Assembly (NCBI RefSeq): GCF_963921235.1
Contig: NC_086097.1
Coordinates: forward strand, 75,642,001-75,706,000
Length of the DNA stretch: 64,000 bases
Reading direction: 5' to 3'
DNA from: Mobula hypostoma
Lineage: Eukaryota
In this document: in pieces, positions 1,004 to 60,333 of the stretch
Layout of the letters: the number at the start of each line of letters is the position of its first letter
Position numbering within the stretch: the stretch's first letter is position 1
Notes under the pieces: model-generated
Database searches by the model: none
What the model was told of the DNA's origin: nothing
What the model saw: the letters and a program-made list of their open reading frames with translations, nothing else
Program-made: the position numbers and the translations under genes

Positions 1004-1675
1004 CACAGGAGATTCTGCAGATGCTGGAAATCCAGAGTAACACAGAGAAAATGCCGGAGGAATTCAGCAAGTCAGGCAGCATCTATGGAGAGGAATAAGC
1101 TGTTAACATTTTGGTCTGAGGCCCCTCATCAGGACTGAAAAGGAAGGAGGAAGAAGCCAGAGTCAGAAGGTGAGTGGCGGGGAAGGAGTACAAACTGGTG
1201 GTGATAGGTGAAGTCAGGTGAGGGGGAAGATAGGAGGGTAGGAGAGAAGTGATGAAGTGAGAAGCTGGGAGGTGAAAAGTGAAAAAAGATAAAGGGCTAA
1301 AAAAGAAGGAAATCTGATAGGAGAGGAGTGTGGACCATGGAAGAAAGGGAAGGAGGTAATAGGCAGGTTAGGAGAAGAGAATTAAGAGGAGACAGTGGGT
1401 GGGGAATGGAAAAAGACAGAGGCGCAAGGGGGGAGAAATTACCAGAAGTTAGAGAAATTAATGTTCATGCCATCAGGTTGGAGGCTACGCAGATAGAGTA
1501 CGAGGTGATGCTGCTCCAACCTGACAGTGGCCTCATTGTGGCAGTAGATGAGGCAATGGACCAGACTGTTGAGGACAAAGCAAGCTGTTCAACAAAGCAG
1601 ACCCATTATCTACATCATGGCTCACTGATTTAAAGGAGGCCGCACGGGTAACACCGGCTACAGTAGATGACCTGA
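1004..1675 (-). mobile_element. Penelope-like element 3'/terminal-repeat fragment, decayed
   Basis: Family end motif (TCTGCAGATGCTGGAAATC), degenerate hammerhead at ~1100-1136, purine-rich tract, GIY-YIG-tail-like antisense sequence at ~1460-1550. Confidence 0.65.
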
Positions 1676-3499: not shown

Positions 3500-4040
3500 C
3501 TAGCAAGAGAAAATCTGCAGATGCTGGAAATCCGAGCAACACACACAAATGCCGGAGGAACTCAGCAGGCCAGGCAGCATCTATGGAAAAAAGCACAGTC
3601 GACATTTCAGGCCAAAGCCCTTTGGCAGGACTGGAGAAAAAAAGCTCAGGAGTAGCTTTGAAAGATGGGGGAGGAGACAGAGAAACACCAGGCAGTAGGT
3701 GAAACTTGGAGGGGGAGGGATGAAGCAAAGAGCTAGGAAGTTGATTGGTGAAAGAGGCAGAAGGCCATGGACGAAAGAAAAAGTGGGGGGAGGGGTAGGA
3801 GCACCAGAGGGGGATGATGGGCAAGCAAGGAGATAAGATGAGAGTAGGAAAATGGGATGGGAAATGGTGAAGGGGGTGGGAGGCATTACTGGAAGTTTGA
3901 GAAATCAAAGTTCATGCAATCAGGTTGGAGGCTACCCAAACGGAATAAGTGTGGCGCGATCACAACAGTAGAGGAGGCCATGGATGGACATATCAGAAAG
4001 GGAATGGGAAGTGGAATTAAAATGGGTGGTCACTGGGCAA
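3500..4040 (-). mobile_element. Penelope-like terminal-repeat fragment
   Basis: Same family as 1004-1675; degenerate hammerhead at 3597-3632. Confidence 0.7.
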
Positions 4041-5352
4041 TCCCCCTTGTACACTATGGTGTACTAGAGTGGGTTTCTCACAGATCCCAATTCATGAGTT
4101 TAAGTATGATCCAATCTTTCTCCCATGAGTTCTAGGACAATCGGATGAAAGTAAGGAGAGGAATGAAGAAACCAAATATAAAAAGGACATAATTTTTTGA
4201 AAGAAACAAATCAAGTTCATAGGGAAGAGAGAGAACAAATGGGAGTGAAACCTGAGAGCTTACTTAGAAAAGGCAAATGAAGATAGACAGCACTAGACAA
4301 GAGAAATAAATCTGGGAAAATGAAGGAAAATTAATCACTGTTTGAGTCTAGTAATATGCTTTATTCAAAGAATGAAACCTATCTAGCTGTAAAACCCTTC
4401 AGAATACAAATCCTCTTCATCACTGGAAACTGAATTACTTGAAAGCTTTGTAAAAATGTTTGCGGAAATATGAGGGCAATTTGTAAACAGCTGGAATTTA
4501 TATAGATCTGAGTCATAGCTATACCTAATTTCATTTTATGAAGAAAATTGAAACTTGAGATAAAATTAATTTACATATACAATTTACAACTGTCCTACAA
4601 CATAAAATAAGCATCCATACGAGCTCAGCTTGCAGCTTGCCTGTTGCGCAAAAGATTGTGATTTCTGCATTTGCATTGCCATCCTTTAAAAACACAGGAG
4701 GTTCTGTGACCCGAAAACTAAACAAGAAATCTGCACAAGTACAGCTGCTTTAATCTTCCCCTTAAGATGAGAGAGTCATAAAATGCAACTGGAAGTAGAT
4801 GGAGCACAGGTAGATGCCAACTGGCCCAAAATATCTGTGCAGTGAATAATTCTGTATCTGTATGTCATTTCTGCTGTTCATAGTAATTTTACTGATATAA
4901 GCTCCATTCATTTGCAGAGTAGATGGATCAAGAACGGAGTCATTGAATAGTAAGTCGTGTGATATATCAACTCTTGATTTTCTGGCAGGATTTGTTACGT
5001 GATTATTTGCATGTGTCACACTCTATACTGAAAGAGAAGGAAAAACCTTGGTGGATAAACCAAGTCATATTGTTTTAATATCATCCTATTAACTGGTACA
5101 AATGAGCTCCAGGAAGTTACATGGGTTGGTGAGCCTAAAAGAAAAAAGACAAAGGTTTATAAGACTGGAAAAAATACTCAAAGACAATCTTCAAGTGATG
5201 GTTTGGGTAACTAATTTTGGAAATCTTCAATATTGAGAATACAATAAACTCCCAGTTGTGTACTTCAAAACACCTTCTAATTCCCTGATGTACTTCAGCC
5301 TATTCCCAGAAACCACATACCCAGTCTCTTCCTCATCCTGTTTATAATAGCG

Positions 5353-7834: not shown

Positions 7835-8930
7835 CACATTCTCCTCTACTGCCGCGATAAGGCCACACTCAGGTTGGAGGAACGACACCTTATATTCTGC
7901 CTGGGTACTGTAGCCGCCGACCTGATGGCATGAATATCGATTCCTTAAACTCCCACGAATTGCCTCCTCCTTCATCCCATTCCCATTTCCCTCATCTCCT
8001 TCTCTCCTTACCTCCTTACCTGTCCATCACCTCCCTCTGGTGCTCCTCCCCCTTCCTTTTCTTCCATGGTCTTCTACCCTCTCCTATCAGATTCCCCCTT
8101 CTCCAGCCTTTCATCTCTTTCACCTATCAACTTCCCAGCTCCTTACTTCACACCCCTGACCCCAGTTCACCTATTACCTATTGCAGTGGTCCCCAACCTC
8201 CAGGCCACAGGCCAATACCGGGCCACGAAGCATGCAGGGGTGCAGCGGTAGCCAGAACAAGCTAATTAATTAGGTGCCGCCCGGCACGTAAATGTCGGCC
8301 CAGATCAGAGGCGATTGCCGACTTCACTTGCTCTATGTGATGTTCACTCCTCTTTCCAGGGCGCTGGAGCCTTTAGCTGTTCCATTGTTTGGTCAATTTA
8401 AACGCCAGCCCAGACAGGCTGAAAAGACAGGGTTGTCAGGATCGAGGTGACATGTTGAATCTACACAAACTTCTACTAAAGTATAGGTGCTGCCGTGCTT
8501 TCTTTGTAATGACAGTTATGTGCTAGTCCCAGGAAGGATTCTCTGACACTTTTCAGAGAGAGAAACGTCGATCCTTAATGCCGAAGAATTTAAAGTTATT
8601 GACCTTCTCCACCTCAGTTTGTCTAATGAAGGCTGGCTTCTGGGCTGCACCTAATTAAATGGCTTGTTTATTTTGGCTTTTTTCTTAAAGATGTGCTGGG
8701 TGCGCTCCGGCTACCGCTGCACTCCTGCATACTTCACGGACCAGTATCAGTCCGTGGCCCGGAGGTTGGGGACCACTAACCTATTGTACTTCTTCCTCCC
8801 CAACCCCCATCTTCTTCTCATCTTTTTATCAGTCCTGATCAGAGTCTTGGCCCAAAACATTAACTGCTTACTCTTTTCCATAGATGTTGCCTGGCCAGCT
8901 GAGCTCCTCCAGCATTTTGTGTGTGTTGCA
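7835..8930 (+). mobile_element. Penelope-like 3' fragment interrupted by a hAT MITE
   Basis: RLEERHLIFCLG GIY-YIG tail at ~7871-7906, pyrimidine tract, degenerate hammerhead at ~8831-8866. Confidence 0.7.
8184..8778. mobile_element. Non-autonomous hAT (Charlie-like) MITE
   Basis: TIR CAGTGGTCCCCAACCT...AGGTTGGGGACCACTA; 8-bp TSD ACCTATTG (8176-8183, 8779-8786); subterminal inverted blocks. Confidence 0.9.
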
Positions 8931-15950: not shown

Positions 15951-16018
15951 GATGAGCAACACACAAAAAAGTTGCTGGTGAATGCAGCAGACCAGGCAGC
16001 ATCTCTAGGAAGAGGTAC

Positions 16019-16054
16019 AGTCGACATTTCAGGCTGAGACCCTTCGTCAGGACT
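16019..16054 (-). ncRNA. Hammerhead motif with CpG decay in helix III
   Basis: Reverse complement AGTC CTGACGA AGGGTCTCAGCCT GAAAT GTC GACT. Confidence 0.65.
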
Positions 16055-16879
16055 AACTGAAAGAAGAGATAGTAAGAGATTTGAAAGTGGGAGGGGAGGG
16101 GGAGATCCGAAATGATAGGAGAAGACAGGAGGGTGAGGGATGGAGCCAAGAGCTGGATAGTTGATTGGCAAAAGGGATATGAGAGGATCATGGGACAGGA
16201 GGCCTAGGGAGAAAGAAAAGGGGGAGGGGGAAGCCCAGAGGATGGGCAAGGAGTATAGTGAGAGGGACAGAGGGAGAAAAAGGAGAGAGCTGTGATAGCC
16301 AGTCTGAGTCAAAATGTGGTCGAAAAGTTGAAGAGCCGAAGAAATTGCAGATGGAGAGCAGTGAGACATGGTTTCACTGAACTCCCATCGAAGCGAAGAT
16401 TTAAACTTCTTCAGTGTAGGCATCACCGGAAGAGGCTTCGCAGTAGTGAATTTAAAAACGCAAACACGAGGAAATCTGCAGATGCTGGAATTTCAAGTAA
16501 CACGCAAAAAAGTTGCTGGTGAACGCAGCAGGCCAGGCAATTTCTTCGGCTCTTCTACTTTTCGACCTCACTGCTCCCCATCTGTAATTTCTTCAGCTCT
16601 TCATCTTTTTGACCACATTTTGACTCAGACTCGCTATCACAGCTCTCTCCTTTTTCTCCCTCTGTCCTTCTCACTATACCCCTTGCCCATCCTCTGGGTT
16701 CCCCCCCCCCACTTTTCTTTCTCCCTAGGCCTCCTGTCCCATGACCCTCTCATATCCCTTTTGCCAATCAACTGTCCAGCTCTTGGCTCCATCCCTCTCC
16801 CTCCTGTCTTCTCCTATCATTTCGGATCTCCCCCTTCCCCCTCCCATTTTCATATCTCTTACTAGCACTTCCTTCAGTT

Positions 16880-16915
16880 AGTCCTGACGAAGGGTCTCGG
16901 CCCAAAACGTCGACT
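16880..16915 (+). ncRNA. Hammerhead motif with mutated core (GAAA to AAAA)
   Basis: AGTC CTGACGA AGGGTCTCGGCCC AAAAC GTC GACT. Confidence 0.65.
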
Positions 16916-17959
16916 GTACCTCTTCCTATAGATGCTGCCTGGCCTGCTGCGTTCACCAGCAACTTTTTTGTGTGTTGCTTGAAATTCCAGCATCTGCAGA
17001 TTTCCTCATGTTTGTAGACAGATGGGATTGGTTTAGCTTGGCATATGATCAACACAGACATGCTGGGCTGAAGGGCCTATTCCTGCACTGTAATGTTCCA
17101 TTTTCTTAATTTTCTTGGGGACTTGCTGATTCAGAGGTTCCATGAAATTATAGCAGAGGTATGTTGCAAAAATACAGCTTTTTTTGTCATCTCCAGCCAA
17201 GGCTAATTCTATTCATAGTTCAGTTATCATATACCTGCCTCAAAATAAACTAGAATTTAGTTTTGCAGCTAATTGAATTCGATGACAGTGATTTATTCCA
17301 GAAAACTGAAGGTAAATTAATGATGGAATGCGATAGGTCATGTAATTCCTCTCACATTAATACTATTTACGAATATAGATAGCTCTTAACAGAGGCTCTG
17401 CATCAGCATGCAGACCAGCATCTGAAATCATATATACATGCACATATGCATTCACAAGCAGCGTAGAAAAGCTTAGCCCTATATAGAACATGCTGTTATG
17501 AGTCATTCTTTATAGCTTAAAACAGGAGATGCTGAGACCTTTCCAGTGTGACACTGTTCAGACAGCAATGTGCAATTACACTCTGATATTACTCTCTGAC
17601 TAATGTAATCTACACCAATAAGTCAATGAACAATCTTTGAAACTTCGCTCAAAGTAATTTTATTTTGTTGCAATCATACTTCCAATAGTAGCAGAACTGT
17701 AACAATTTACTTCTTACACAAGTTTATAGGAATGTTCCTAAGATATAAAGCAGACTATCATCCATGACCTCAGGATGACCAAAAACCAAGAAGGTATGAA
17801 ATGTAATCACAATTGTAACTTGAGAGATATCACAACTTTTACAAAAAAATTCAAATTTACTCTTCTGCATTAAATATTCTCCATGTGTTTTGGAAGCAGG
17901 CATTTACAGAAATTGAATGAAGCAGGTGCTAAAATATATATCTTAAGGTTGGCAAAGGA

Positions 17960-19731: not shown

Positions 19732-19768
19732 GTAGCGTCCATCAAAGGCTCAGTCTTTGCAAGCAAGG

Positions 19769-20791: not shown

Positions 20792-20797
20792 ACATGC

Positions 20798-21011
20798 CTC
20801 TGTCCCAACTTTTGTTGAGTGTGTTGCAGCCATCAAATTCTAAATTTGTGTATGTTTACAAAATACGATTAAGTTGGTCAGTAAAACTATAGAAAAGATT
20901 TTCTTTGCTCTTTTGTCAGTTAAATAAAGGTTCACGTGAATTAACATATCACAGATTTTTGTTTTTATTGCATTTTTGAAAATATCCCAACTTTTCTGGA
21001 AATGGGGTTTG
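20798..21011 (-). repeat. Right terminal inverted repeat of Tc1
   Basis: Reverse complement of 19408-19621, followed by TA. Confidence 0.95.
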
Positions 21012-21134
21012 TACAATACCAACTAGTTCTACACAAATACATTCGGCATGCATTTTCATCTTTTAGTTTATTATTTAACTAAATGTATGCCATTCACATA
21101 AAATGCAGTTTTGAAACAGTAATTATGATGGCAT

Positions 21135-21369: not shown

Positions 21370-24300
21370 GAGCATAAGTTAGGAACAGATGTTCTCAGGG
21401 GAAATGTGCAGCAGAAAATGTGGAGGCTGCTTAGAGAACACTTACATGGGTTTCTGGATAGGTTGGTCCAATTGACGCAGGGAAAGGATGGTAAGGTGGA
21501 GGAAACCTGGTTGACAAGGGAGGTGGAATATTAAATCAAGAGGAAGCATAATTGAGGTTTAAGAAGCAAGGATCAGAGAAAGCCTTGAGAGTTATAAGCC
21601 AGCCAGTAAGTAGCTTATGAAGGGGCTTATAAGGGCTAGAAGTGAACATGAGGAAGTCTTGGCAGGTAGGATTAAGGAAATCCTCTAGGCGTTCTACAAA
21701 TACGTGAAGATCAGGTGGATGACTAGAGTGAGGGTATGACTGCTAAGAGATAAATGGTGAAACATGTGTGGAGACAGAGAAAATAGGGGACATCTTTAAT
21801 GAATACTTTGCTTCAGACTTGACCGAGGGAGGGACTTTGACGTATGTGAGTTCAGCATAAAACAAGCTAATGTGCTGGAGCCCACTGAAGTTTCAAAAGA
21901 GGCAATGTTGGTGCTTTTAAAAAATCTTAGGATAGATAAGTCCTAGGACCATATGGGACATCCCCTAGATTCCTACTGGAATTAATGAAGAGACTGCTGG
22001 GTCACTGTTGATGATTCTTTCTTCCCACAGAAATAATACCAGAGGATTGGAGGATAGCAAATCTTGTTCCATTGTTCAAGAAAAGTAAAAAGGATAATCT
22101 TGGGAATTATAGGCTCATCCATAAAGGCAACTTGATTGGACCTTCGAAAAATAACAGATGCAATTATGCTGAAATATTGTAGGCTCCCTAATAGCCACTG
22201 AGAAATAAAGGAACTTTCCATAATCTGTCTACAGTATTGATTGGATCTTTCTTAATACAAGAAGCTTAGATGGGGCAGTATTTCTTCAATGCATCCAAGA
22301 GGGTTCTTGAAACAGTATGTGGAGAGTCCAATCAGTGGAGAGAACATACTGGACCTAGTTTTGAGAAATGAGCCAGGCCAGGTGATAGATCTGGTGGTGG
22401 GTGAACTTTTTGGGAATAGGGACCACAGCTCATTATGGTTTAAGATATGAGTATATGAACAAGGATACTATTGGATCTTTTGGAAAGGTACAAATTTAGA
22501 GGAGAGAAAGTACAACAGGATAAGACAGGAGCTAAAGGATATTGATTGGGAGTAGCTGCTGCCGGATAAGTCCATGTCTGACATGTGTGAGTTGGTTAAA
22601 GATCAGCTGATCAAGGTGCAGGATTGGCATGCTTCAGTAAGAAGTAAAGAGAAGAAAGGTAAGGTAAGCGAACCTTGGATGACCTGAGAGGTCCTTAATT
22701 TAGTCATAAATAAGTACAATATATGCAAGGTTCAGTAAGTTAAAATTATACTGGGCTCTTAATGGAATATAAAGATAGCAGGAAAGTGCTCAAACAGGTG
22801 ATTAGGAAGGCCAGAAAGGGCCAGGAAATGTCATCATGAGCAGGATCAAAGAGATACCCAAAGAATTTTAAAATTATATTAAGAAAATGAGGATAACTAA
22901 GGAGAGGGTAGGTCCACTCAAGGATAAAAGATGAAATTTGAGCTTGGAGTCAGAGCAAGTGTTTGTGATGGTGTTTACCAAGGGGAAGGATTTGGAGGAT
23001 AGCAAAAGCAGAGTGAGACATCCTAATGTGATGGGAAATTTTGTGATTAAAGAGGAGATAGTGCTGGGTCTTTTGAAAATCAATAAGGTGGATAAGTCCC
23101 AGGTCCTGCTGGCAGCTGTGTACATACATCTATTGATGCTTCTGGACACATCTTCAGTGATGTTCCTGGAATCATCGGGTGTTTCGGGTCTTTCAACATC
23201 ATACAACCTCCTCCAGGTGACCCAGCCGGGGCTGATCAGACCCCATCCTCTAGATGGCTAGCTACTTATGACTCCATGGCTCCTCTCTTTTGAGCCACAG
23301 CCATCTTGAGGCCCTCTCTGCCGCATCGGTGGTACTGCGGATGGCTCTCCTCTTCCTCTCTCCCTCAATGCCCAAAATGCTGAAGGCTCTAACTAAAGAA
23401 CGGGCTATGAATCCCCTACAACCAACCTCCACTGGGAGACACCTCGCTCTCCATCCAGCCTGCTGACAGTTGCTGACCAGTCCTGCGTACTTGGAGAGCT
23501 TCCTTTCAAAGGCCTCCTCCAAGCTATCTTCCCATGGGACTGTCAGCTCCAGCAGCACCACTTGCTTAGTAGACTCAGACACTAGGACAATGTCTGGTCG
23601 CAGGGTGGTGGCTGGCATATATTCTTTCAAAATATTGTAAGAAGCAAGTGTTAAGGTTGCTGGGCTTGGACAAGGATCATGTGTCCTGGCTATCCACAGG
23701 TGAGTTCCCCAAGAGTAGCAAAGATAGTGCCTTGGTTCAAGAAGGGAAATAGGAAAAAAATCTGTTAAGTGTAGGCCAGTGAGCCTTATGTCTGCAGTTG
23801 GGAGGCTATTGGAGAGTATACTGAGAGATAGGATTTTGTATATTTGGAAAGCCACAGTCTGCTTAGGGACAGTTAGCATGGCTTTGTGCAGTGCAGATCA
23901 TATTTTACAAACTACACTGAGTTTTTTGAGAAGGTGATTAGACGATTGATGCTAATGTAGTGGATGTTATGTACATGGACTTCAACAAGCCATTTGATAA
24001 GATCCCTCATGGTAGATTGTTCAGAAGATAAAGATGCATGGGATTCAGAGTGAATTGCAAGTTTGGATTCAGAACTGACTTGTCCATAGAAGACAGAGGG
24101 TAGGGTGGAAAGCTGTTATTCTGATTGGAGATCTGTGACCAGTTGTATTCTGCAATGATCAATGCTGGAACATCTATTGTTGGTGACATTTATCAATAAT
24201 TTGGATTAAAATGTTGATGGGTTGTGATTATCATGTCTACAGATGGTTGAGTTGCGAACAGTGTAAAGGACTATCGAAGAATATAATGGTATATAGATCT

Positions 24301-25391: not shown

Positions 25392-25527
25392 GACACAAGA
25401 GATTCAGCAGATGCAGGAAATCTTGAGCAACACAAAAAAAAACGGAGGAACTCAGCAGGTCAGACAGCATCTATGGAGGGAAATAAATAGTCAACCTTTC
25501 GGGCTTGAGACCCTTCATCTGGACTGA
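25392..25527 (-). mobile_element. Short Penelope terminal-repeat fragment
   Basis: Family end motif and degenerate hammerhead at ~25489-25525. Confidence 0.65.
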
Positions 25528-26420: not shown

Positions 26421-27524
26421 ATAGGGCTTGAAGCACTGTTTCACCAGAATAGTATTGAAACATACAATAAATTAACAAGACTATTAGCATACATTTAGTT
26501 TTTTATGCCTTTAGCTACAGAAGAATATGGACTGGTCTGTCAGAGGTACACAAAAGGTTTCATAAAAACCTATTCACAATAACTATTTAATCTGATAGGG
26601 AAATAGAAAATCAAAGGAATAAATTCAAAATTAGAGTTATTTACAAGGAAAATCAGAATTATTTTTAAACAAAGGCTAGCAGAATATGTTGGAAATCCCA
26701 AAAGTTTTCAAATAATTGCCTTTGTGATGCAAGATTTTAAAATGATATATCAAAAAGATACTGTAGACTAGTTGTACAGAGTGTTAAGTCAGTCTCTGAT
26801 CAATTCTGGTCAGCAGATCTCAAGAAATACTCAAAAAATACTCTGACTTTCCACAACAATTGAAGGTGAAAGGAGAACTAATAAAATTAGAATCAATGGA
26901 AAAAAATCAGAACTGTCAGGTAAGAGCTACTCATTAAAAGGAGTGCTGTCTAATTTCATTGATCATGTCAGCAAAATTTCAGTCAACAAGATTTTAATCA
27001 CATTTATCCCCATTTGATGAGGATTTTGAAGAAGTTTCAAGCACGTATCCTGTCTGATAAATCCTTTATCCTTCTACTCCTGCTGCAGTTATCTCAGCAT
27101 TGATTCATTTCATACTTACAACAGACCACCCAATGATATTTCCCATTCATAACATTGGATCACTTTGATATATTTCTTCTCTCCAGTGAATGACCATTGC
27201 ATCCCAAAGTTTCCTACTACAAGTGGTATTTTCTGAATATTCACCTCATTGCTTCCTCTCCCCCCTTTCACTTCCAAAATCTTCACTTTCCATCAATTTT
27301 ACTCACCTTACTTTTCTTCCTGGTCTCTCCATTTTCCTTTCTCACTCCCACCCTCCCTCCCTCCCCCCCTCCCCCTCTCATTCTATGCACTACCATGTCC
27401 CTTTCCTTTCCTCCATATTGGTTCCATAATTACTAACATTGTTTTATCAGAAGAAAAAGATCCTTAAGTGCATTTCCACAGTGATCAACTAACATTATAA
27501 GACCTATTTCTCCTCAGATTTTCC

Positions 27525-29405
27525 AGTGAACAGTAGGGCACTGAGGAGTGCTGTAGAACAGAGAAATCTGCGAATACAGGTCCACAATTCACACAGGAGA
27601 TTAGTGTGCAAACTTAAAGCACACGTTATTGGGGGTAAGGTATTGGTGTGGGTGGAGAATTGGTTAGCAGACAGGAAGCAAAGAGTGGAAATAAACGGGA
27701 CCTTTTCAGAATGGCAGGCGGTGACTAGTGGGGTACCACAAGGCTCAGTGCTGGGACCCCAGTTGTTTACAATATATATTAATGACTTAGATGAGGGAAT
27801 TAAATGCAGCATCTCCAAGTCTGCGGATGACACGAAGCTGGGCGGCAGTGTTAGCTGTGAGGAGGATGCTAAGAGGATGCAGGGTGACTTGGATAGGTTG
27901 GGTGAGTGGGCAAATTCATGGCAGATGCAATATAATGTGGATATATGTGAAGTTATCCACTTTGGTGGCAAAAATAGGAAAACAGATTATTATCTGAATG
28001 GTGGCCAATTAGGAAAAGGGGAGGTGCAACGAGACCTGGGTGTCATTATACACCAGTCATTGTAAGTGGGCATGCAGGTACAGCAGGTGGTGAAAAAGGC
28101 GAATGGTATGCTGGCATTTATAGCGAGAGGATTCGAGTACAGGAGCAGGAAGGTACTACTGCAGTTGTACAAGGCCTTGGTGAGACCACACCTGGAGTAT
28201 TGTGTGCAGTTTCGGTCCCCCAATCTGAGGAAAGACATCCTTGCCATAGAGGGAGTACAAAGAAGGTTCACCAGATTGATTCCTGGGATGGCAGGACTTT
28301 CATATGAAGAAAGACTGGATGAACTGGGCTTGGACTCGTTGGAATTTAGAAGATTGAGGGGGGATCTGATTGAAATGTATAAGATCCTAAAGGGATTGGA
28401 CAGGCTAGATGCAGGAAGATTGTTCCCGATGTTGGGGAAGTCCAGAACGAGGGGAAACAGTTTGAGGATGGAGGGGAAGCCTTTTAGGACCAAGATTAGG
28501 AAAAACTTCTTCACACAGAGGGTGGTGAATCTGTGGAATTCTCTGCCACAGGAAACAGTTGAGGCCAGTTCATTGGCTATATTTAAGAGGGAGTTAGATA
28601 TGGCCCTTGTGGCTACGGGGGTCAGGGGGTATGGAGGGAAGGCTGGGGCGGGGTTCTGAGTTGGATGATCAGCCATGATCATAACAAATGGCGGTGCAGG
28701 CTTGAAGGGCCAAATGGCCTACTCCTGCACCTATTTTCTATGTTTCTATGTTTCTATGAAAGTGGTGTCACAGGTTGATAGGGTTGTAAAGAAAGCTTTT
28801 GGCACATTCACCTTCATAAAGCAAAGCACTGCAGTACAGGAGATGGGATGTTATGTTGAAGTTGTATAAGACAATGGTGAGGCCTAATTTGGAGTATTGT
28901 GTGTAGTTTTGGTCACCTGCCTACAGGAAAGATGTAAATACGGTTGAAAGAGTACAGAGAAAATTTACAAGGAAGTTGCTGGGAGTGGAGGACCTGAGTT
29001 ATAAGGAAAGATTGAATAGGTTAGGACTTTATTGCATGTAACATAGAAGACTGAGGGGAGATTTGATGGAGGTATACAAAATTATGAGGGGTATAGATAG
29101 GGTAAATGCAAGCAGGTTTTTTTCCATTGAGGTTGTCTAGCACTACAACTAGAGGTTATGGTTTACTGGTGAAAGGTGAAAAGTTTAAGGGGAACATAAG
29201 GGGGAAACCTTCACTCAGAGGGGTGTGAGAGTGTGGAACCAGCTGCCAGCACAAGTGATACACGTGAGCTTGATTTCAACGTTTAAGAGCAGTTTGGATA
29301 AGTACGTGGATGGTGCAGGTCGATGGGAGTAGGCAGTTTAAATGGTTTGGCATGGAATAGAAGCACCTGTTTCTTTGCTGTACTTTTCTATGATTCTATG
29401 ACTCT
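27525..29405 (+). mobile_element. Older CR1 3' fragment hosting the young CR1
   Basis: 27525-27590 (VEQRNL.IQVHNS) continues at 28757 (KVVSQVDRVVKKAFG); (TTCTATGA) tail at ~29386-29404. Confidence 0.8.
27591..28756 (+). mobile_element. Young 5'-truncated CR1 LINE
   Basis: RT C-terminus (SGVPQGSVLGP, KSADDTK, LVRPHLEYCVQF) in one frame with a single TAA at 28063-28065; (TTCTATGT)n tail. Confidence 0.93.
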
Positions 29406-29553
29406 TTCAGTTTTTGCTGTCATAAATTAACATCTTCTCACATAGTGGAAGTTGCCAACAACAGGAATTCAGCAGATGCTGGAAATTCAAGCAACACACA
29501 TCAAAGTTGCTGGTGAACGCAGCAGGCCAGGCAGCTTCTCTAGGAAGAGGTAC

Positions 29554-29589
29554 AGTCGACGTTTCAGGCCGAGACCCTTCGACAGGACT
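29554..29589 (-). ncRNA. Hammerhead motif with mutated CUGANGA box
   Basis: Reverse complement AGTC CTGTCGA AGGGTCTCGGCCT GAAAC GTC GACT. Confidence 0.65.
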
Positions 29590-30256
29590 AACTTAAGGAA
29601 GAGTTAGTAAGAGATTTGAAAGTGGGAGGGGGAGGGGGAGATCCAAAATGATAGGAGAAGACAGGAGGGGGAGGGATGGAGCCAAGAGCTGGACAGGTGA
29701 TTGGCAAAGGGGATATGAGAGGATCATGGGACAGGAGGCCCGGGGAGAAAGACAAAGGCGGGGGGGGGGAACCCAGAGGATGGGCAAGGAGTATAGTCAG
29801 AGGGAGAGAGGGAGAAAAAGGAGAGTGAGAGAAAGAATGTGTGAATAAAAATAAATAACGGATGGGGTATGGGGGGGTGGGGCATTAGCGGAAGTTAGAG
29901 AAGTCGATGTTCATGCCATCAGGTTAGAGAAGTCAATGTTCATGCCATCAGGTTGAACATTGACTTCTTTAACTTCCGCTAATGCCCCACCTCCCTCTCG
30001 TACCCCATTCGTTATTTATTTTTATTTACACATTCTTCCTCTTTCTCTCATTTTTCTCCCTCTGACTATACTCCTTGCCCATCCTCTGGGTCCCCCCCCC
30101 CTTGTCTTTCTCCCTGGACCTCCTGTCCCATGATCCTCTCATATCCCCTTTGCCAATCACCTGTCCAGCTCTTGGCTCCATCCCTCCCCCTCTATCATTT
30201 TGGATCTCCCCCTCCCCCTCCCACTTTCAAATCTCTTACTAACTCTTCCTTCAGTT

Positions 30257-30292
30257 AGTCCTGACGAAGGGTCTCAGCCTGAAACGTCGACT
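30257..30292 (+). ncRNA. Minimal type-I hammerhead ribozyme motif, intact core
   Basis: AGTC CTGACGA AGG-GTCTCAG-CCT GAAAC GTC GACT: helix I AGTC/GACT, CUGANGA and GAAA boxes, GUC triplet at 30286-30288. Confidence 0.8.
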
Positions 30293-31083
30293 GTACCTCT
30301 TCCTAGAGATGCTGCCTGGCCTGCTGCGTTCACCAGCAACTTTGATGTGTGTTAGTGGAAGTTGCCTGTGGAATGACTAAGAGGATAATGTAAATAAGTA
30401 ATCTTCACAATCAGCATGGTATGAATACATAATGTATATGTACAGATACAATATACAGGGCAAATCAATCATTCCGGACCCAACTGATTGCCTGGGCTTG
30501 ATGGCCATGGCTCCCACCCACCACACTTACCTCTTCCTGATATAGAGAGCCAGACAGGCAAATTCTCTGCACCCAGCTCACATCCTGTGAGGCAGAGCGG
30601 GCTCCAGACTGCCTTAAGCCACTTATGCTGATGCCCTGATAGTCTTTGGCATCTTGCAACTTATTACAAGCCTTTTAATAGTATATAAATATCCCGTGTC
30701 AGTTATCAATCTTTTAAAACTATTCAAGTTTATTTAAATAATTTTAAAAACTTAATTGAAAGACCTGAAAGCGTATTTACCTTTAAATGCATCAAACATC
30801 AAAAAATAATTTAAAACATTAAAATAACTACAGCACTTACTTGCACTTAACATATTTTGTAGTTCCTTCTTTTAGATTCTATACATGCCTAAAAGATGGA
30901 CTCTATGCAACTCTGTGTGCCTAGTCGCTAGTGAATCAGATTTACCAGATAACATAAAGAACAATTGTTGGAAGAAGATGAACAATCTTCTACTGTGGCA
31001 GTAAACAGTGTGGAACAACACAGGATAAGCTGGGGTTTCCGAGAAGAAGCAGGAATGGGCAGGTTTCTTCTTGCAGCCTTAAT

Positions 31084-32277: not shown

Positions 32278-33789
32278 TGATAATAAATTTGATTCTGATT
32301 TTCTCTCTGTGGTGATCAATGTTTTGCTGCTCTATGAGTTTCCGGGTATTCGATCAGAATAGGTAATTATCTGCCATAAAAAATACATCACTTTTTAATG
32401 TTACCAAACCTTGTTGCGTTTATTTATCGTTGCTTTAGAACTAATTATTTACTCATTTATTTCCTAGCTAAGAGGCCAATTAAGTTCTTCGTTATTGTGA
32501 GGAGATGCAAGTGAGCCGTGATGTTTGACATTCGACTCAGTTTCTGTGATTTAAAAAAAACCTACCTTAGACAAGGAACTAATCGTACAGGGAACCGAAA
32601 GGGAGAACCCACATCCTTTTTTTAAAAAAAAGTTTATCTAGTTTGAAATGCAGTTATTGTCTTTCCACGTTAAAAATGTATTTCCGCATTAGCTTCAGAT
32701 TGTTTTAATTTCAGGACCAAATTGGTGAATTAAACCAGAAGAAACTACAAATTCAAAATTTACTTCAAACTTCTAGGAAAAGATTAATTGGGGATAGAAA
32801 TAACCAGCAAACTCTAGCCCTTGATCCTTCTGCATCTTTTTATAATGGCTTTCAGACAATATGCTTTCAAAGTGGCCCTTATAAATAAAATCATCATAGT
32901 TGTTAAACATCAAATTAACTGATAATGGAAGGGCACCCGTATTTTTTCACCGAATGGGGTGGCTTGCAGCGCATCGTCCGGCTAGCGATGCCTTTTCCAG
33001 CACCCAGGCTTTCCCTTCCCAGCTCACTAACGTATAGCCAGCTCGCCGAGCCAGAGGCTCGTACAAAAACGCTGAAGGAAATCAGCAGATTACACAGCAT
33101 CCATGCAAGAGAATAAACAGTCGACTTTCCTGGTGAAGTGCCTCGGTCGACTGTTTATTTCCTGCCATAGACGCGATGCGGCTCGCAGGGATCCTCCAGC
33201 GATTCCCGCGCGCAGCCCAAGCTTCCCAGCATCTGCAGAATCTCTTGTGCCTTTAAATTACTGCGCGCTACCACTGGGAAAGAGGGAAGGACTACTTCCA
33301 CGCGGCTCACATTGACAGAGAGAAAACTAACCTTTCAGCAGCACGCGTCGGGCTTTAATTACTGACCAGTTCTAGCGGAACTGAGTGAAGAGAGAGCGAA
33401 GCAGAGAGAGGGGCGAAAGGTAGGGAGGAAGGTGGATCGGTCTGCAGGACTTGTTGTCGGGGCGGAGGAGGGATACGGGTTTCCCAGGGTGCGTGCGACG
33501 TCCATTGCTTCCGCCCGGACGCCAGGCAGCGTCCCCCTCCCTCCCTCCCACAGAGACGGCCCAGCGCCCCTCCTCCTCTTCTCGCCGACTGAGAGCGGGA
33601 TGGAGCTCCAGAGTGGAGCGGTGCCACTGGACAGGCCGGGGTCAGGCCACTGAAGACAGGCCACGAGTGGTGCGCTTCTCCCTCTCCCTCTCCCCCCCTC
33701 CCCCTCACTTTCCCACCCGGTGTGATGTGGATACCAGCGGCCGAGGCGCTGCCCGGCCCGGGACAGGCAGCGGGAAGGGCGGCTGCAAC

Positions 33790-33858
33790 ATGAAGAAGTG
33801 GTGTGGCGTGCCGGGGATGCTGCTGAGGATTAACGTGGCGATGATCGCAAGGCGCTGA
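33790..33858 (+). other. Putative uORF MKKWCGVPGMLLRINVAMIARR
   Basis: GCAACATGA Kozak context; TGA ends 3 nt before ATG 33862, same frame. Confidence 0.4.
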
Positions 33859-33861
33859 AAG

Positions 33862-33887
33862 ATGAGCGAGGAGGCAAACCAGACCGA
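33862..33887 (+). CDS. Probable coding part of exon 1 of an unidentified gene (MSEEANQT, phase-2 intron)
   Basis: AAGATGA start (A at -3) within the CpG island, followed by donor GA|GTAAGG; no convincing exon 2 found in the window. Confidence 0.5.
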
Positions 33888-34274
33888 GTAAGGGGACTAC
33901 ATCAAGGCATAAATAAACAAATGGTAGCCGCCGGCGCTCGCACCCGGGGGCTCGCTTCCCAGCACTGTCGTCCGACTACCATCATGATTCCGGCGTAATC
34001 TGGGGACGCAACCGCAGCCCAACCCCGGCATGGACCACTTGGGTCCCTACCATTACTCCCTCTGCCCCCCTCCCAGACCCCTAACCCAACATCCACCCCT
34101 GACCCACCATCCCTCCACTGCCTCCCGATCAACCCCACACCCCCGATTGATCCGTCATGCCCCCGACCCGCCAGTCACCTTCGCCCACCCCCGGATACGA
34201 CAGCAACCTTTCTTTCTCTCCGTAAGCCACCAATTGCCCTCTTACCAACACTGACCCAACAATTACCCGCTTAC

Positions 34275-35230
34275 CGGCCCCCGATCCGACAGTTACCCTC
34301 TCCACAGCCCTCCGACCCACCAGTCATCCTCTCCCCAGCCCTCCGACCAGTCATCCTCTCCCCAGCCCTCCGACCAGTCATCCTCTCCCCAGCCCTCCGA
34401 CCCACCAGTCACCCTCTTCCCAGTCCTCCGACCCACCAGTCACCCTCTTCCCAGTCCTCCGACCCACCAGTCACCCTCTCCCCAGCCCCGATCCGACAGT
34501 CACCCTCTACCCAGCCTTCCGGCCTACCAATTGCACTCCTCCCACCCCACCCCCCCATCCGACTCCTCACCCATCCCCCCAATCCGACTCCTCACCCATC
34601 CCCCCGATCCGACTCCTCAGTCACCCCCCCGATCCGACGTCACCCACACCCCCGATCCGACTCCTCACCCACACCCCCGATCCGACTCCTCACCCACACC
34701 CCCGATCCGACTCCTCACCCACACCCCCCGATCCGACTCCTCACCCACGCTCCCGATCCGACTCCTCACCCACGCTCCCGATCCGACTCCTCACCCACCC
34801 CCCCGATCCGACTCCTCACCCACACCCCCGATCCGACTCACCGTCCCCCCCGATCCGACTCACCCTCCCCCCGTCCCCCCCGATCCGACTCACCCTCCCC
34901 CCGTCCCCCCCGATCCGACTCACCCTCCCCCCGTCCCCCCCCGATCCGACTCACCCTCCCCCCGTCCCCCCCCCGATCCGACTCACCCTCCCCCGTCCCT
35001 CCCCATCCGACTCACCCTCCCCGTCCCCCAGATCCGACTCACCCTCCCCGCCCCCCCATCTGACTCACCCTCCCCCATCCCCCCAATCCGACTCACCCTC
35101 CCCCATCCCCCAATCCGACTCACCCTCCCTGTCCCCCATCCGACTCTCACCCTCTCCATGCCCCCTCCATCCGACTCGCCCTCCCCATCACCCCGATCCG
35201 ACTCGCCCTTCCCCTCATCCGCACTTCACC
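34275..35230. repeat. C-rich compound minisatellite (~23-29 bp units built on TCCGAC...TCACCC)
   Basis: Direct tandem repeats such as CCCCCGATCCGACTCCTCACCCACAC. Confidence 0.92.
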
Positions 35231-37539
35231 CTCTCCCTCATCCGCACTTCACCCTCACCCCCATCCACACTTTACCCTCTCCCCCCTCGATCTGACATTC
35301 ACCCTCTCCCTGCACCCTCCCCCATCCGACTCATTCTCCCCATATCCCCATCTGCCATTCACCTCCCCACCCCCCCATTCAAGATTCACCTCTGACCATC
35401 CCATCCAACATTCACCCTCTCTGCACAACCCCACCCCCCAGTCTGACATTCACCCCCTCCCCACACTCCTCCTGAATCGACATTCAACCTCTCCCCACGG
35501 CCAACCCGCCTTACACCCTCATCCCTCATTCCCTACTGACCTGAAATTTACCCCTAAGTAATCCTGCTCCTGCCAGAAATGCCTTTCCGTGCTCTCACCC
35601 AGACACACTGTCCTCAAGATCTGTTGTCCTTTCTACCCACCCACCTCAACCCCTCTGTCCACTCTCCTGCCACCTATCCCTTTGTCTCCATCTCCTCCTC
35701 TCACCCCTCCTGACCCTTAACCCCACTTACGCCGTCCCAACCTCTAACTAACCCAAGCCCTGCCACTTCCTTTAAAGCTTACGTGTCAACCATCCCAGTA
35801 TCTCCTTCCGTTCCACTGTTGCCCCTACACCCTTCTCCTTCCCCTTCACCAGCTCCCACCACTTTTCTCATTCTACCTTTTTTGTTGAATACTATGGATG
35901 TGATGGTGACTGTACAGTGGTCAAATGCTGTGAATGTTGAATGCAAAGGTTACTCTGTTTCATCTGTACCAATGGAATGGGACAAGATGGAAGTCCATAC
36001 TATGTAGAGGGATAAGGAGTTGCATGTCATTGGCACATTGGGCGGATGGAGGACTATATTTCACACGCACGGATAGGGTGGCAGATGTGTGTATATATTT
36101 TACCACAGAACAAGGAGAGGTGGTTGTGTACAATCGTAATACCCAGGTTGATGGGGGAGTTGGTTTAGAAATGGAAGTGTTTGCGAAAATACGAATTGTA
36201 TTTTGTTTGGTATTTAAGAGGCCTGAGTTATTTTGTGCTTAGTGTTGGAGGTGATTGGGGAAGGCTGGTGTGAGCAAAACCTGTCCTGAGTGGGTTGGGG
36301 GCCAGGTTTGAAAATGAGGGGGCATACATCCAGCCTCCGCCCTGTATTTGGAAATGGGCTTCTTTGCTTGGCAGGGGTTGGGAGGAGGGGAAAGGATAGA
36401 TTTAATTTAAGTAGTGCCAGGCTTTGCAGTTGCTGCAGATGTGGAGTTGGGTGCAGTTGGAAACAGAATTCTGCCTCCTACATATTTGAAACAGTCTTCA
36501 TTTTTGTTCTCTTCTAGTTGCCCTCGGGTGGTTTGATAGGCTAGATTTCCGCTATGCAATGACCCTCCAACGGACTCAGCCATCCTGCTTTTTTGTCAAT
36601 CATTCTTTTCTGCATTGCTTTTTCATTCATAAAAGAAGCTCTGTAATATGTCATTTCCCTTCTCCTTTCAAGCCTGTGGTAAAGGGGCCGTTTTAGGCGA
36701 TACATAAATTACTCACTGGCCTTGTCACATCCGTTATTGGTAGCAATGGTAACATTTCGAAATCTTGGTTGTGGAGAAGCGTGTGAAAGGAGAACAGTTT
36801 GCCGGATGCACTCATGTGGTGAGAAATATTAGCATGGGAGGTGCAGCAGTCATGTGACTACCCCATTCATAAAATACCTGTTGTCCATTCACAACCCTGC
36901 ATTCACTTGCATTATACAGTAAGATCAGTGGCTCAGGAAAAAAGCCGACTCGGGATTTTTTTTGCCAGACAGTATACTTTGCAACATTTTAACAATAGCC
37001 AAGAAGTTGTATCTGTAACTTTAGCTTTGTGAATAGCTAAAGAGAGAGCAATATTATACTCTGAACATGAGTTTCCAAATGTAAGGTTAATTAACTTGCA
37101 ATATATGAAACTTGTAGAACTGCCATTATGTATTATATTACCAGTTTCCTACAGGTTTTGTTACATTGGGAATTTGCTGCAAGGTTTATCCCCCCCCAAA
37201 AACAAGCTTTTGTTGGCAAAATGTCTATCTTCCCTGATATTGTTTCCTTTCTTAAGGGCTTTCATTCTTTCTAGAAAAGTTGGCAAATTCCTGGCAGTAA
37301 CTGTAATCATTGTTCAAGATACAGTATTTGTAATTCGAAGGTGGCACTGGTGAAACTCAGTGACGTTCTGTGAACAGTTTACAAAACTTCTAAATATACT
37401 TCTTCTGAAGTACTCTCACTGCAATCTGCATCCTGTAATTTCCCTTTAAGTAATGTTCATTTGAACCATTGTTAAAGAAAAACAGTTATTTCACAATCTT
37501 CTTAAGGACTTGATGGACTTCTCTCAGGAATACGGGTAT

Positions 37540-44448: not shown

Positions 44449-44900
44449 TAAACACAAGAAATCCTGGAAATCTTGAGCAACACGCACAAAATGCTGGAGG
44501 ACCTCAGCATGTCAGCAGTATCTGGAGGGAAATACACGGTTGATGTTTCAAACTGAGATTCTTCAATAGGACAGGAGAAGAAGGGGGAAGAAGCCAGAAT
44601 AAGAAAGTGAATGGAGAGGAAGTAGTACAAGCTGACAGGTGGTAGATGAGACTGGGTGAAAGCAAAGGTGAGTGGGTGGGTCAGCTGTAAAAGGCAGGAT
44701 CTCCTGGTAGCTACCCATTTCAATTTGACTTTCTATTCCCGTTCCCATTCTGATATGTCTGTCCTCCACAGCCATGATGAGCCCACACTCAGACTGGAGG
44801 AGCAGCACTTCATATTCCACCTGGGAGCCACAAACCTGATGGCAGGTGGCATCAAGTAATTACTCCTCACTCCCCCTTTTCTCTTTTTTAACATTTCCCC
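44449..44900. mobile_element. Penelope-derived fragments in opposite orientations
   Basis: Terminal repeat on minus (44449-44690); RLEEQHFIFHLG on plus. Confidence 0.6.
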
Positions 44901-45508
44901 TTTTTGGTTACTCTCGCCCCATCAAGTGATCTGAAATCTTATGTTGCTGAACAGCAGAAAAAATGTTGATGGAGTGGCTGATTCCTTAAATGATTCTGCA
45001 AGATTGGGAAGATAATATGAAGAGCATTTGATGGCTCTGGGCCTGCAACTCGGTGTTCAGAAGAATGAATGAATTGCAACCTCCTGAATACTGAAATATC
45101 TGGATAAAGTGGACTTAGAGAAGATACTTGCATTAGTAGGAGAGTCTTAAGATGTGAGAATAAAAACTTACCCCTTGAGAACTGGAATGAGATGCCATTT
45201 CTTTAGCCTGAGGCTGGTGACTCTGGAGCTTATTGCCTCAGAGGGCTGTTGGTGTGGCTGGCTCTGTAGTGTAGTGTAGCAGTTAGCACAGTGCTTTACA
45301 GCAGCAGCTGTAAGATCAGGGCACAATTCCCTACTGTTACCTGTAAGGAGTTTATGCATTCCCCTCATGACCACGTGAGTTTCCTCCAAGTGTTGCTGTT
45401 TTCTCCCACATTCCAAAGATAAAAGGTCTGGGTTAGTGAGTTGTGGACATGTTATGTTGGTGCTAGAAGCACAGTGGCACTAATGGCTACTCAACACAAT
45501 CCTCACTG

Positions 45509-45689
45509 CAACACACATCAACGTTGCTGGTGAACGCAGCAGGTCAGGCAGCATCTCTAGGAAGAAGTACAGTCGATGTTTCAGGCCGAGACCCTTCGTC
45601 AGGAGAGATGCTGCCTGACCTGCTGCGTTCACCAGCAACTTTGATGTGTGTTGCTTGAATTTCCAGCATCTGCAGAATTCCTCGTGTTT
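45509..45689. mobile_element. Miniature fold-back Penelope-end element with hammerhead in the loop
   Basis: ~50-bp inverted arms; 13-bp TSD ACAATCCTCACTG (45496-45508, 45690-45702). Confidence 0.85.
45571..45604 (-). ncRNA. Truncated hammerhead motif
   Basis: Reverse complement TC CTGACGA AGGGTCTCGGCCT GAAAC ATC GACT; 5' strand of helix I is cut by the fold-back junction. Confidence 0.55.
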
Positions 45690-46974: not shown

Positions 46975-49170
46975 AACACAGAAAATGCAGGAGAAACTCA
47001 GAGGGTCAGGCAGCATTTCTGGAGAGAAAGAATAAACAGCAGAGACCCTTCACCAGAACTGGAAAGGAACGGGGTATAACCAGAGTAGGGTGGTGGGGAG
47101 AGGGGAGGATTCAAGTTTGCAGATGATAAGTGAAACCAGGTGAAGGGGATGGTGGGCTGGTGGGGGAGGAGGGTACTGGGAGGTCATAGGTGTAATAGGT
47201 ATAGGGCTAAAGAACAAGGAATCTGATAGAGGACTTCAGATCATGGAAGAAACAAAAGTAGGAGGGGCCCTGAGGCCAATCAGTTGGCAAAGAGCAAAGA
47301 AGGGGTAAGAGAGGAACCAGAATGGGAAAAGAGAGAAGGGGAAGGGGGAGAAATTATCAGAAGTTAGAGAAATCAAGTTACTGCCATCAAGTTGAAGGCT
47401 ACCCAGACAGAATACAAAGTGTTACTCCTTCAGCCCGAACGTGGCCTCATTGTGGCAGTAGAAAAGACTATTGACTGACATAGAATGAGAAATTGTAATG
47501 GGTGGCCACAGAGAAATTTTGCCTTTTGCAGTGGACAGAGCAAAGGCGCTCAACAAAGCAGTCCCCCAATCGACAAAAGAAGGTGACACCAGACTGGGAG
47601 CACCAGTTACAACAGATGACCTCGACAGACTCACAGGTGAAGTGTCATTTCACCTAGAAGGACTGTTTAATTGGTGGTGAGGGAGGAGGCGTAGGAGCAG
47701 GGCTGGTGTATCACTTGTCACACTTGCAGGAATAAGTGCCAAGAGGGAGGTTAGTGGGGAGGGATAAGTGGACAAGAGAGTCACTAGAGAATCCCTGTGG
47801 AAAGCAGAGAGTTGGGGGAGGAGGCAAAGCTGTGCTTAGTGGTAAGATCCCGTTGTAGATAGTGGAAGTTACGGAGAAGGATGTGCTGAATACAGGTCTT
47901 CATGGGGTGGTTCATGGAAGGGCAAGGAGAACCCTGAGCCTGTAATGGTGGCGGGACAATAGAGTGAGGGCAGATTCATGTCAAATGGAGGAGATATGGG
48001 TGGAAGGGAAACCCTGTTCTTTGAAAATGGAGGACATTTCAGATGTTATAGAAATGGAAAGTATCTTGAGAACAGATGTGGTAGAGATGGAGGAACTGAG
48101 AAAAGAGAATAGAATTTTTACAAATGACGGTGTTTAAAAGTATAGTCAAAATAACTATATGCCTAGCCCTGATTGCCTCATTTTCACTCTGGACAAATGG
48201 TTCCTATACATTTCTATCCTGCTTCAGAAAGGCCTTAACGCTCTCCAGTTCATTCTATACAACAGACTTCACCAGTTCCCCTCCACCACCACTTTCTGCA
48301 TAGTGGAACTGGTTCCCACCCTCACTCAACAATTTTTCTTTTGTTTCCTCCCACTTTTTCCAAACCCAATGTGTAGCCATGGGCTCCAGCTATGCCTGCC
48401 TTTTCTTTGGCTACATGGATGAGTCTATGTTCCAGATTGACATTAGTACCACTCCCCAACTTTCTATGCTGCATCACTGATTACCTTGCTGCCTTTTCCT
48501 GTACCCATGCTGAGCTTGCCAATTTCAGCAAATCTGTCCCTTGCTTCCACTCTGCTCTCAGATTTACTTGGTCCATCTCTGACACCACTCTCCTCTTTCC
48601 CAATCTCTGTCTCCATCTTAGAAGACAGACAACTGATACGTACTGACTCACACAGCTATCTTGACTATACCTCTTCCCACTCTGTCTTTTCTCTTTCTCA
48701 GTTTGTCTCTGCCGTATTTGTTCTCAGGATGAGGCTTTCTATTCTAGAACATCTGAGATTACCTCCTTTTACAAAGAATGGGGTTTCCGTTTCACGAGTA
48801 TTGACTCTGCCCTCAATGACATGTCCTATTTTCCACACATCTGTCCTCGAGTCATCCTCCCATCACCATCCCCTTTTCCTTACCTCACCTACCACCGCAT
48901 GAGCCTCCATATCCAGCATATCATTCCCCATAACTTTCGCCATTTACAATGGATTTTACCATGAAGCACATCTTTCCCTCCCGCCTTCTCCCCCTCCCCT
49001 TTGCTTTCTGTTGGTCTCCTCGTGACTTGTTTGTCCACTCATCCCTCCCCACTGATCTCCCTCCTGGAACTTAGCTCTGTGCAAGCATGACGAGTGACCT
49101 GCTGTACTCTTCTTCCCTCACCACCATTCAGGGTCCAAAACTGTGAGGTGATACATCACCTGAGAGCTTA
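46975..49170. mobile_element. Decayed Penelope-like element: minus part to ~48160, plus RT part after
   Basis: TDSHSYLDYTSSH and (G)VAMG..YA.LF.GY RT remnants; terminal repeat at 46975. Confidence 0.7.
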
Positions 49171-60235: not shown

Positions 60236-60330
60236 CAACACACATCAAAGTTGCTGGTGAACGCAGCAGGCCAGGCAGCATCTATAGGAAGAGGCGCAGT
60301 CGACGTTTCAGGCCGAGACCCTTCGTCAGG
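60236..60330 (-). mobile_element. 95-bp Penelope-end insertion consisting mainly of the hammerhead
   Basis: Direct repeat ACTTGGGAA (60227-60235, 60331-60339); interrupts a CR1. Confidence 0.8.
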
Positions 60331-60333
60331 ACT
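60298..60333 (-). ncRNA. Minimal type-I hammerhead ribozyme motif, intact core
   Basis: Reverse complement reads AGTC CTGACGA AGGGTCTCGGCCT GAAAC GTC GACT. Confidence 0.8.

Follow-up and report, generated by a model that had tools for sequence, protein, structure and literature searches.

We found that the hammerhead motif at 30257..30292 of the plus strand of the window (the whole stretch of 64,000 nucleotides of Mobula hypostoma DNA that was analysed) is intact, and a joint explanation that we consider likely is that it represents the pseudo-LTR hammerhead of a young autonomous Penelope-like element (PLE), that the copies in the window are likely inert and that the ribozyme would act through the weak-cleavage mechanism proposed below. 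This kind of motif is already described, being in print since 2014 (the type of Cervera and de la Peña 2014), and the motif is an ordinary member of it, with the exception of an older lineage that carries a C at core position 6 (A6C). Its kind being known, the motif alone changes little; the notable parts are the A6C lineage and the result obtained on the 5' junctions of the insertions.

The motif consists of helix I (AGUC/GACU), the core CUGACGA, an extra A, helix II (GGGU/GCCU, 4 bp with a G10.1-U11.1 wobble and the 4-nt loop CUCA) and GAAA, followed by a palindromic ACGU which replaces helix III, loop 3 being absent. The hammerhead position numbering and the pairing scheme of the double hammerhead are assumed to apply to this 36-mer. 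The predicted cut site lies 3' of C30288, which is position 17, as proposed in the earlier note, and the description given there, a minimal type-I hammerhead derived from Penelope in which the palindromic helix III has no loop, was borne out. A degenerate string for the 36-mer is matched without mismatch at 30257-30292 (+) and 60298-60333 (-), the two copies that had been claimed to be intact. Four other copies had been claimed to differ at single sites, which holds for 16019 (-, C15.2U), 16880 (+, G12A) and 29554 (-, A6U) with 1 mismatch each, but not for 45571 (-) with 3 mismatches, where the 5' strand of helix I is gone at an inversion junction and G16.2A is found in addition. The 16880 copy deviates at 11.1 as well. 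The five sites that had been called degenerate are all family members by nhmmer, with E values of 3.6e-12 at ~1100 (-), 3.7e-22 at 3597 (-), 4.6e-8 at 8831 (+), 1.8e-11 at 25489 (-) and 2.5e-6 at 44537 (-). A chance origin of the motif is ruled out by the complete absence of matches, both for the degenerate string in 100 shuffles and for reversed patterns. A 264-kb stretch with the window at its centre contains 35 ungapped copies of the motif, of which 16 keep the core letters and 5 pass a strict test on core, helix I, helix II and palindrome; within the window only 30257 and 60298 pass. Rfam, to which the earlier note had looked for a hammerhead match, gave no hammerhead family in the whole window, nor in 30230-30330 at E up to 10, and the motif thus escapes the Rfam models; neither was a sequence match present in the PDB at E 0.01. 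Rfam miRNA-family matches at 29813-30056 were rejected, being far below the gathering scores and a mere reflection of inverted arms. The motif and its relatives are located in the window as follows.

30257..30292, plus strand: intact minimal type-I hammerhead motif, by string match, folding and strict test
29954..30353, plus strand: direct arm of one insertion, with the last codons of the ORF, the 3' untranslated region, the hammerhead and a tail-less end; 86% to 3161-3581 of the full-length unit
29458..29929, minus strand: inverted, 5'-truncated arm of the same insertion, with an extra tail and the hammerhead 29554-29589 (A6U); 90.5% to 3145-3616 of the unit
29443..29456, plus strand: left target-site duplication of the insertion 29443-30366, 14 bp
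30353..30366, plus strand: right target-site duplication of the insertion 29443-30366, 14 bp
60236..60333, minus strand: 98-bp solo 3' end with the hammerhead 60298-60333 as its exact start; target-site duplication of 9 bp
15955..17014, unstranded: complex inverted insertion with a 9-bp target-site duplication and the hammerheads 16019-16054 (-, C15.2U) and 16880-16915 (+, G12A)
45508..45689, unstranded: short inverted insertion with a 13-bp target-site duplication and the hammerhead 45571-45606 (-), which lacks the 5' strand of helix I and carries G16.2A
3504..4043, minus strand: older copy of lineage D, hammerhead 3597-3632 with A6C plus decay
1005..1671, minus strand: older copy with endonuclease remnants and a degenerate hammerhead at 1101-1136 (nhmmer)
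8831..8929, plus strand: older degenerate hammerhead and element end (nhmmer)
25402..25525, minus strand: older, lineage C-like degenerate hammerhead and element end (nhmmer)
44460..44573, minus strand: older degenerate hammerhead and element end (nhmmer)
47355..49144, unstranded: older PLE remnants with broken reverse transcriptase (RT), thumb, endonuclease and two opposed arms (tblastn 41-62% in pieces, E to 8e-48)

The stretch 29443-30366 is one insertion, built of a duplication, the inverted arm with its tail, the direct arm and the second duplication, and its two arms are 95-96% complementary. Target-site duplications of 9-14 bp flank all four young insertions of the window and three of the four are inverted pairs; 5' truncation, an inverted partner and a one-ended tail form the published layout of PLEs (10.1101/2021.04.23.441226). 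The hammerhead at 60298-60333 is identical to that of the open-frame copies. RNA read through 29443-30366 is predicted to form a duplex of about 400 bp in which the 30257 hammerhead is buried (-803 kcal/mol, z -56), and no same-strand hammerhead partner was found near 30257. Because of its inverted arms and the lack of such a near partner, the 30257 copy is likely inert in place, and the motif is likely inert in the copies of the window in general, which are truncated insertions. More widely, many inverted pairs would give long double-stranded RNA if they were read through. As a separate observation, two loci 1.4 Mb apart (L031:4077-7761 and L032:1810-5431) have one inversion junction in common, 97% identical over 3,636 bp, while their adjoining flanks do not align, a sequence pattern which suggests that the inverted-pair structure itself was copied as a unit.

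Homology around the motif extends upstream for more than 1 kb at many loci and leads into a frame with RT and GIY-YIG domains. The protein of the element counts 1,016 aa in a unit of about 3.5 kb and displays DKG at 421, YIDD at 662, the linker CKRNKCYTC (CX4CxxC) at 883, GVIY at 919 and YIG at 933; with Pfam, RVT_1 (E 3.6e-5) and GIY-YIG (E 0.001) were recognised, both below the curated cut-offs. Judged by these sequence features, the carrier is an autonomous PLE with an RT plus a GIY-YIG endonuclease at the C-terminal end, and its clade, read from motifs, is likely Neptune. In the published account of Neptune a CX2-5CxxC linker between RT and endonuclease is the criterion (10.1101/2021.04.23.441226), and this linker is present here, Nematis having the same one. 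The element further resembles the endonuclease-bearing Neptune PLEs of that account in the order RT then GIY-YIG, a CxxC between GIY and YIG, partial tandems, an inverted 5'-truncated partner and a one-ended tail, with no difference in kind.

A genome search with 500 residues gave, for the best 86 of 96,111 candidates scored, identities of 98-100%; 83 of these 86 are stop-free and 18 have frames of at least 1,000 aa, 14 of which were analysed as long-frame loci. The hammerhead lies about 300 nt past the ORF stop in 14/14 of these loci and in 9/14 a second one is present on the same strand, 3.5 kb upstream and about 170 nt before the ATG, which is the pseudo-LTR location typical of minimal hammerhead ribozymes (min-HHRs); the upstream pseudo-LTRs reach 1.5 kb and the first conserved ATG is found about 140 nt past the cut site. 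Nine colinear frames deviate by only 0.5-1.5% from their majority, and the family is therefore young and, as far as these sequences indicate, probably still mobile. Selection on the ORF appears in these nine frames as a weak trend only (21 synonymous against 26 non-synonymous shared changes, 44 against 82 private ones). The closest named proteins are from Chiloscyllium punctatum (an uncharacterised one at 72% and another at 69%), in keeping with a host that is likely a cartilaginous fish; no named entry for the element family occurred among the protein matches, and a literature search with limited coverage (few subscription journals, no Repbase or Dfam) yielded no paper devoted to its members in sharks and rays. 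Contigs resembling the element also occur in the sequencing runs X1, X5 and X13, of several different organisms, which makes the family common to relatives. No pile-up of starts or ends was listed for four runs, which consist of contigs and so speak neither for nor against expression.

Genome-wide (3.48 Gb, 200 contigs), a 30-nt pattern of the motif has 31,387 + 31,409 = 62,796 exact matches and a 35-nt CpG-tolerant pattern 47,991 + 48,263 = 96,254, against 0 for reversed control patterns in the same genome; both totals are lower bounds for the family and not numbers of working ribozymes. The very large genome-wide family that had been claimed is thereby confirmed, and around the window the element covers 21,880 of 264,000 bases (about 8%). 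For min-HHRs of the Cervera type, about 4,000 were reported in coelacanth and 9,000 in X. tropicalis (PMC4209133), compared to at least 62,796-96,254 here, with different search methods, while 126,247 retrozyme hammerheads were reported for axolotl (PMC7229834; 10.64898/2026.07.22.740005). The epithet 'retrozyme-like' in the earlier note did not survive: what is found are insertions, 5'-truncated or inverted, that stem from an autonomous element whose RT-endonuclease frames are open, and short tandem units are absent. That the family would be a non-autonomous retrozyme, spreading via small circular RNAs, is very improbable. Most copies are indeed short and non-coding, one insertion of the window is internally deleted, and retrozymes were reported in the one chondrichthyan genome of Li et al. 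(10.64898/2026.07.22.740005), but the 5' ends of the copies vary along one 3.5-kb unit, open autonomous copies exist, and the closest motif neighbours are mostly on opposite strands, with one same-strand pair less than 1 kb apart (483 bp) among the 35 copies in 264 kb. In the internally deleted insertion, 15955..17014, the arms show the ORF start fused directly to the 3' untranslated region with about 3 kb missing, and this deletion junction was absent elsewhere in the 891 kb of partly overlapping DNA compared; the deleted copy at 16.2-17.0 kb was accordingly rejected as a family of its own. For the copies analysed, which are dispersed truncations of a coding unit, the retrozyme reading is thus largely refuted. 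The non-LTR retrozymes (PMC7229834; 10.64898/2026.07.22.740005) do share type-I hammerheads, a very high copy number and a relation to PLE pseudo-LTRs with the present family, but their units are described as short, non-coding and arranged in tandem, and the tested examples have canonical hammerheads. As an aside, 16279-17006 forms a unit of roughly 650 nt with one hammerhead, which could seed a retrozyme.

According to nearest-neighbour prediction, the isolated 36-mer prefers a closed hairpin (-10.0 kcal/mol) over the open form (-6.0 kcal/mol), in which hairpin the core GACG is paired with CGUC at the cut site. The double hammerhead is predicted at -9.5 kcal/mol compared to -20.0 for two closed monomers, in a model that omits the tertiary energy of the core, and for helix II the register that bulges the A is favoured over the alternative by 1.4 kcal/mol. 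On these models the bare RNA should cut poorly. This prediction matches the activity published for relatives, in which min-HHRs cut weakly and only as dimers (PMC4209133), and the hammerhead of a PLE from anole cuts only in the presence of protein, mutants of it still inserting in vitro (PMC11167929).

When 231 contexts were sorted by their flanks alone, 127 fell into lineage A, 14 into B, 21 into C and 34 into D, with 35 unassigned and left out; as many loci were chosen by patterns, these sizes are not frequencies. A seeming fifth lineage (L147, L148) was dropped, its flanks being shared and the pair likely a segmental duplicate. The majority 36-mers of the four lineages are 0.86-0.94 alike, against 0.51-0.69 for the 36 nt upstream. 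Between lineages a short spacer is 0.47-0.81 alike and the distal 45 nt 0.77-0.98. Conservation at 15-60 nt downstream (0.77-0.98) almost reaches that of the motif itself, and some of this constraint may be due to protein binding or the RT start. Every catalytic letter, the extra A and the palindrome are kept in three of the four lineages; ACGU stands in the majority sequence of A, B and D, and its loss in C is likely CpG decay. The earlier note had tied its proposal to conservation of the core and covariation of the helices across family copies. The motif is indeed kept between lineages, but helix covariation was not found, none of the 8 helix pairs being changed on both sides across the four nearly invariant sets of helices. 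The sole helix change between lineages is C11.1U in A, a one-sided change of G-C to G-U: G10.1-C11.1 is present in 13/14 copies of B, 27/34 of D and 12/21 of C, and G-U in 103/127 of A, and U stands at 11.1 in the 3' hammerhead of 14/14 long-frame loci. Neither was protection of the core seen at the level of copies, since in 15 young copies from the 264 kb non-CpG mismatches amounted to 11/390 in the motif and 35/819 in the downstream flank; decay at about the flank rate is what is expected of dead inserted copies. In 45 copies from loci picked by their ORF, the values were 3/1170 for the motif and 91/4304 for the flanks, with inherited changes counted many times. By these comparisons the signal of selection lies between masters or lineages and not among inserted copies.

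The A6C lineage came forward as three copies in the 264-kb alignment with CUGCC in the core and distinct flanks. A pattern with a non-A at position 6 has 1,171 matches, of which the first 100 listed comprise 65 C, 23 G and 12 U, an excess of C which is the reverse of the preference of random decay. With the older upstream context 3,430 matches were obtained, the first 100 listed having 93 C and 7 U, from which about 3,200 A6C copies or more are extrapolated at strict matching. C6 is found in both arms of several inverted pairs and with both loop variants (18 and 13 of 31 A6C copies). Upstream of the lineage D copies, endonuclease remnants show about 50-80% identity to the young protein, and mean divergence is 0.051 in D compared to 0.031 in A and 0.021 in B. 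By analogy with another hammerhead, in which A6C lowered kobs from 0.3 to 3.55e-6 per min at 0.3 mM Mg2+ while activity in Mn2+ was spared (PMC7151607), A6C is a core change predicted to cripple self-cutting. The simplest reading, which is not proof, would be that a nearly silent ribozyme did not stop lineage D from spreading, although a wild-type A6 partner could cut A6C RNA in a mixed dimer, which weakens the argument. The phage Bcep176 hammerhead (PMC3088659, PMC7151607) has the same core change, but is a single ribozyme reported to be weak in Mg2+ and active in Mn2+ in vitro, whereas lineage D is a retroelement of thousands of copies known from sequence. A literature search of limited journal coverage found no paper on A6C in Penelope hammerheads, which is weak evidence of absence.

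These observations bear on the idea that the motif is kept as a structure for protein binding, promoter function or RT start, without any cutting in the host. We hold this to be unlikely. Its support comes from the predicted ground state in which core and cut site are paired, from the U that replaces the conserved C at 11.1 in the 3' copy of all 14 long-frame loci, from the amplification of the A6C lineage and from the similar conservation of the neighbouring downstream region. Against it, three of the four lineages keep the complete set of catalytic letters, extra A and palindrome, related min-HHRs cut in vitro (PMC4209133, PMC11167929), and the A6C lineage, with 3,430 pattern matches compared to 96,254, makes up a minor part and exceeds A and B in divergence.

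The element terminates about 65 nt past the cut site, or about 100 nt with the tail, and ends of this kind coincide with RT start sites in the anole element (PMC11167929). With an RT start downstream of the cut site, copies that hold the whole motif would have arisen by reverse transcription across the scissile bond. A pile-up of 5' ends at the cut would be expected if linear cut RNA commonly served as template. Patterns for 5' junctions with a preceding purine matched 1,043 times at the cut site, compared to 798 at a position ten bases upstream of it and 663 at one eight bases downstream; among the first 100 matches listed for each, non-element sequence upstream was recognised by eye in about 36, 34 and 11, respectively, which extrapolates to roughly 375, 270 and 75 junctions. 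Cut-site junctions are thus highest, yet only about 1.4 times the upstream control and less than 1% of copies, and nearly all scored junctions join an antisense arm through 2-4 shared bases. A pile-up of 5' ends of insertions at the predicted cut site was not seen in the first 100 matches of each listing, in a test whose scope is that of counts by eye on purine-preceded junctions with patterns of unequal looseness. Uncut and re-ligated RNA templates give the same outcome in this test. Taken by analogy, the absent pile-up and the amplification of A6C fit published in vitro work in which cleavage is not needed for insertion.

An absent pile-up is also expected when circular RNA is the obligatory template for transposition, a reading that we find rather unlikely. 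Pseudo-LTRs up to 1.5 kb, the passage of the RT over the cut site twice in 9/14 long-frame loci and the motif held across four lineages speak for such circles; the spread of A6C, in two loop variants, to some 3,200 copies or more, with a change that reduces kobs so strongly in another hammerhead (PMC7151607), and the insertion of hammerhead mutants in vitro (PMC11167929) speak against them, although an A6 partner could cut A6C RNA in a mixed dimer. In the mechanism that we prefer, two same-strand hammerheads about 3.5 kb apart in full-length tandem copies would pair via their ACGU palindromes, and the double hammerhead would have a weak cutting activity that, judging by published relatives, probably depends on refolding of the RNA by the protein of the element itself. 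Reverse transcription would begin downstream of the cut site, at a distance of about 65-100 nt as the two element ends indicate, and would pass through that site, with most insertions arising from RNA that is continuous at the scissile bond, either uncut or re-ligated. Cleavage would likely trim or circularise some transcripts and aid the persistence of a lineage, and is likely not required for each insertion. A more far-reaching proposal, serious but held just short of probable, is that the A6C lineage is a natural knock-down which spread via at least two masters without an excess at the cut site, so that cleavage would be dispensable in a vertebrate germ line while lineages with an intact core win in the long term. 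Next to this, inverted partners were seen to stop often at the 5' strand of helix I (about 15/100 of the upstream-control rows and 8/100 of the cut-site rows), and two window copies start at that strand (60333 and 45604); at this strand the hammerhead cDNA could fold back on itself and prime its own synthesis.

Compared to the min-HHRs of PLEs as described (PMC4209133), the present hammerheads are alike in being type I without loop 3, with a palindromic 15.2-16.2, an extra base between 9 and 10.1, a short helix I, a spacing of about 3 kb between the two copies of full elements, numerous solo copies and pairs on opposite strands at distances of 100-700 bp. They differ in a helix II of 4 bp, compared to 7-8 bp in the Schistosoma min-HHR, in G10.1-U11.1 of the young master instead of the conserved G10.1-C11.1, and in the A6C lineage, of which no mention was found in that account (PMC4209133). 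With Poseidon PAc of Anolis carolinensis (PMC11167929) they share a hammerhead that lies upstream of two element ends with a tail between them, but the clade differs and the ORF of PAc starts inside the hammerhead instead of past the cut site. The family is useful for being young, with many open frames and lineages in different hammerhead states (G10.1-C11.1, G10.1-U11.1 and A6C), which allow cleavage rate to be compared with transposition success, a comparison that touches on whether PLE hammerheads are template makers, RNA regulators or dispensable. If the natural knock-down is true, the family would be well suited to test what these hammerheads are for.

Next to the PLE copies, the window contains a number of other features.

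19406-21013: Tc1/mariner-type DNA transposon, its 216-bp inverted ends 94% complementary
19736-20791: stop-free transposase frame of 351 aa of this transposon (DDE_3 E 8.6e-19)
33300-35560: CpG-rich stretch, then a C-rich minisatellite of 1.3 kb with units of 23-31 nt
23262-23897, minus strand: frame ending in a PD...ELTVPWE-like motif
27500-28900 and 52400-55200: LINE fragments with RT (RVT_1 E 8.9e-12 for 52959-53837)
7330-7392: tRNA-like head of 22.3 bits, under the Rfam cut-off

Pfam gave no match on three frames at 33300-35560, nor on the frame 23262-23897, the end motif of which we take to resemble the restriction-like endonuclease of R2/NeSL-type retrotransposons. The LINE fragments are presumably CR1-like, and the tRNA-like head at 7330-7392 is probably that of a tRNA-derived SINE.
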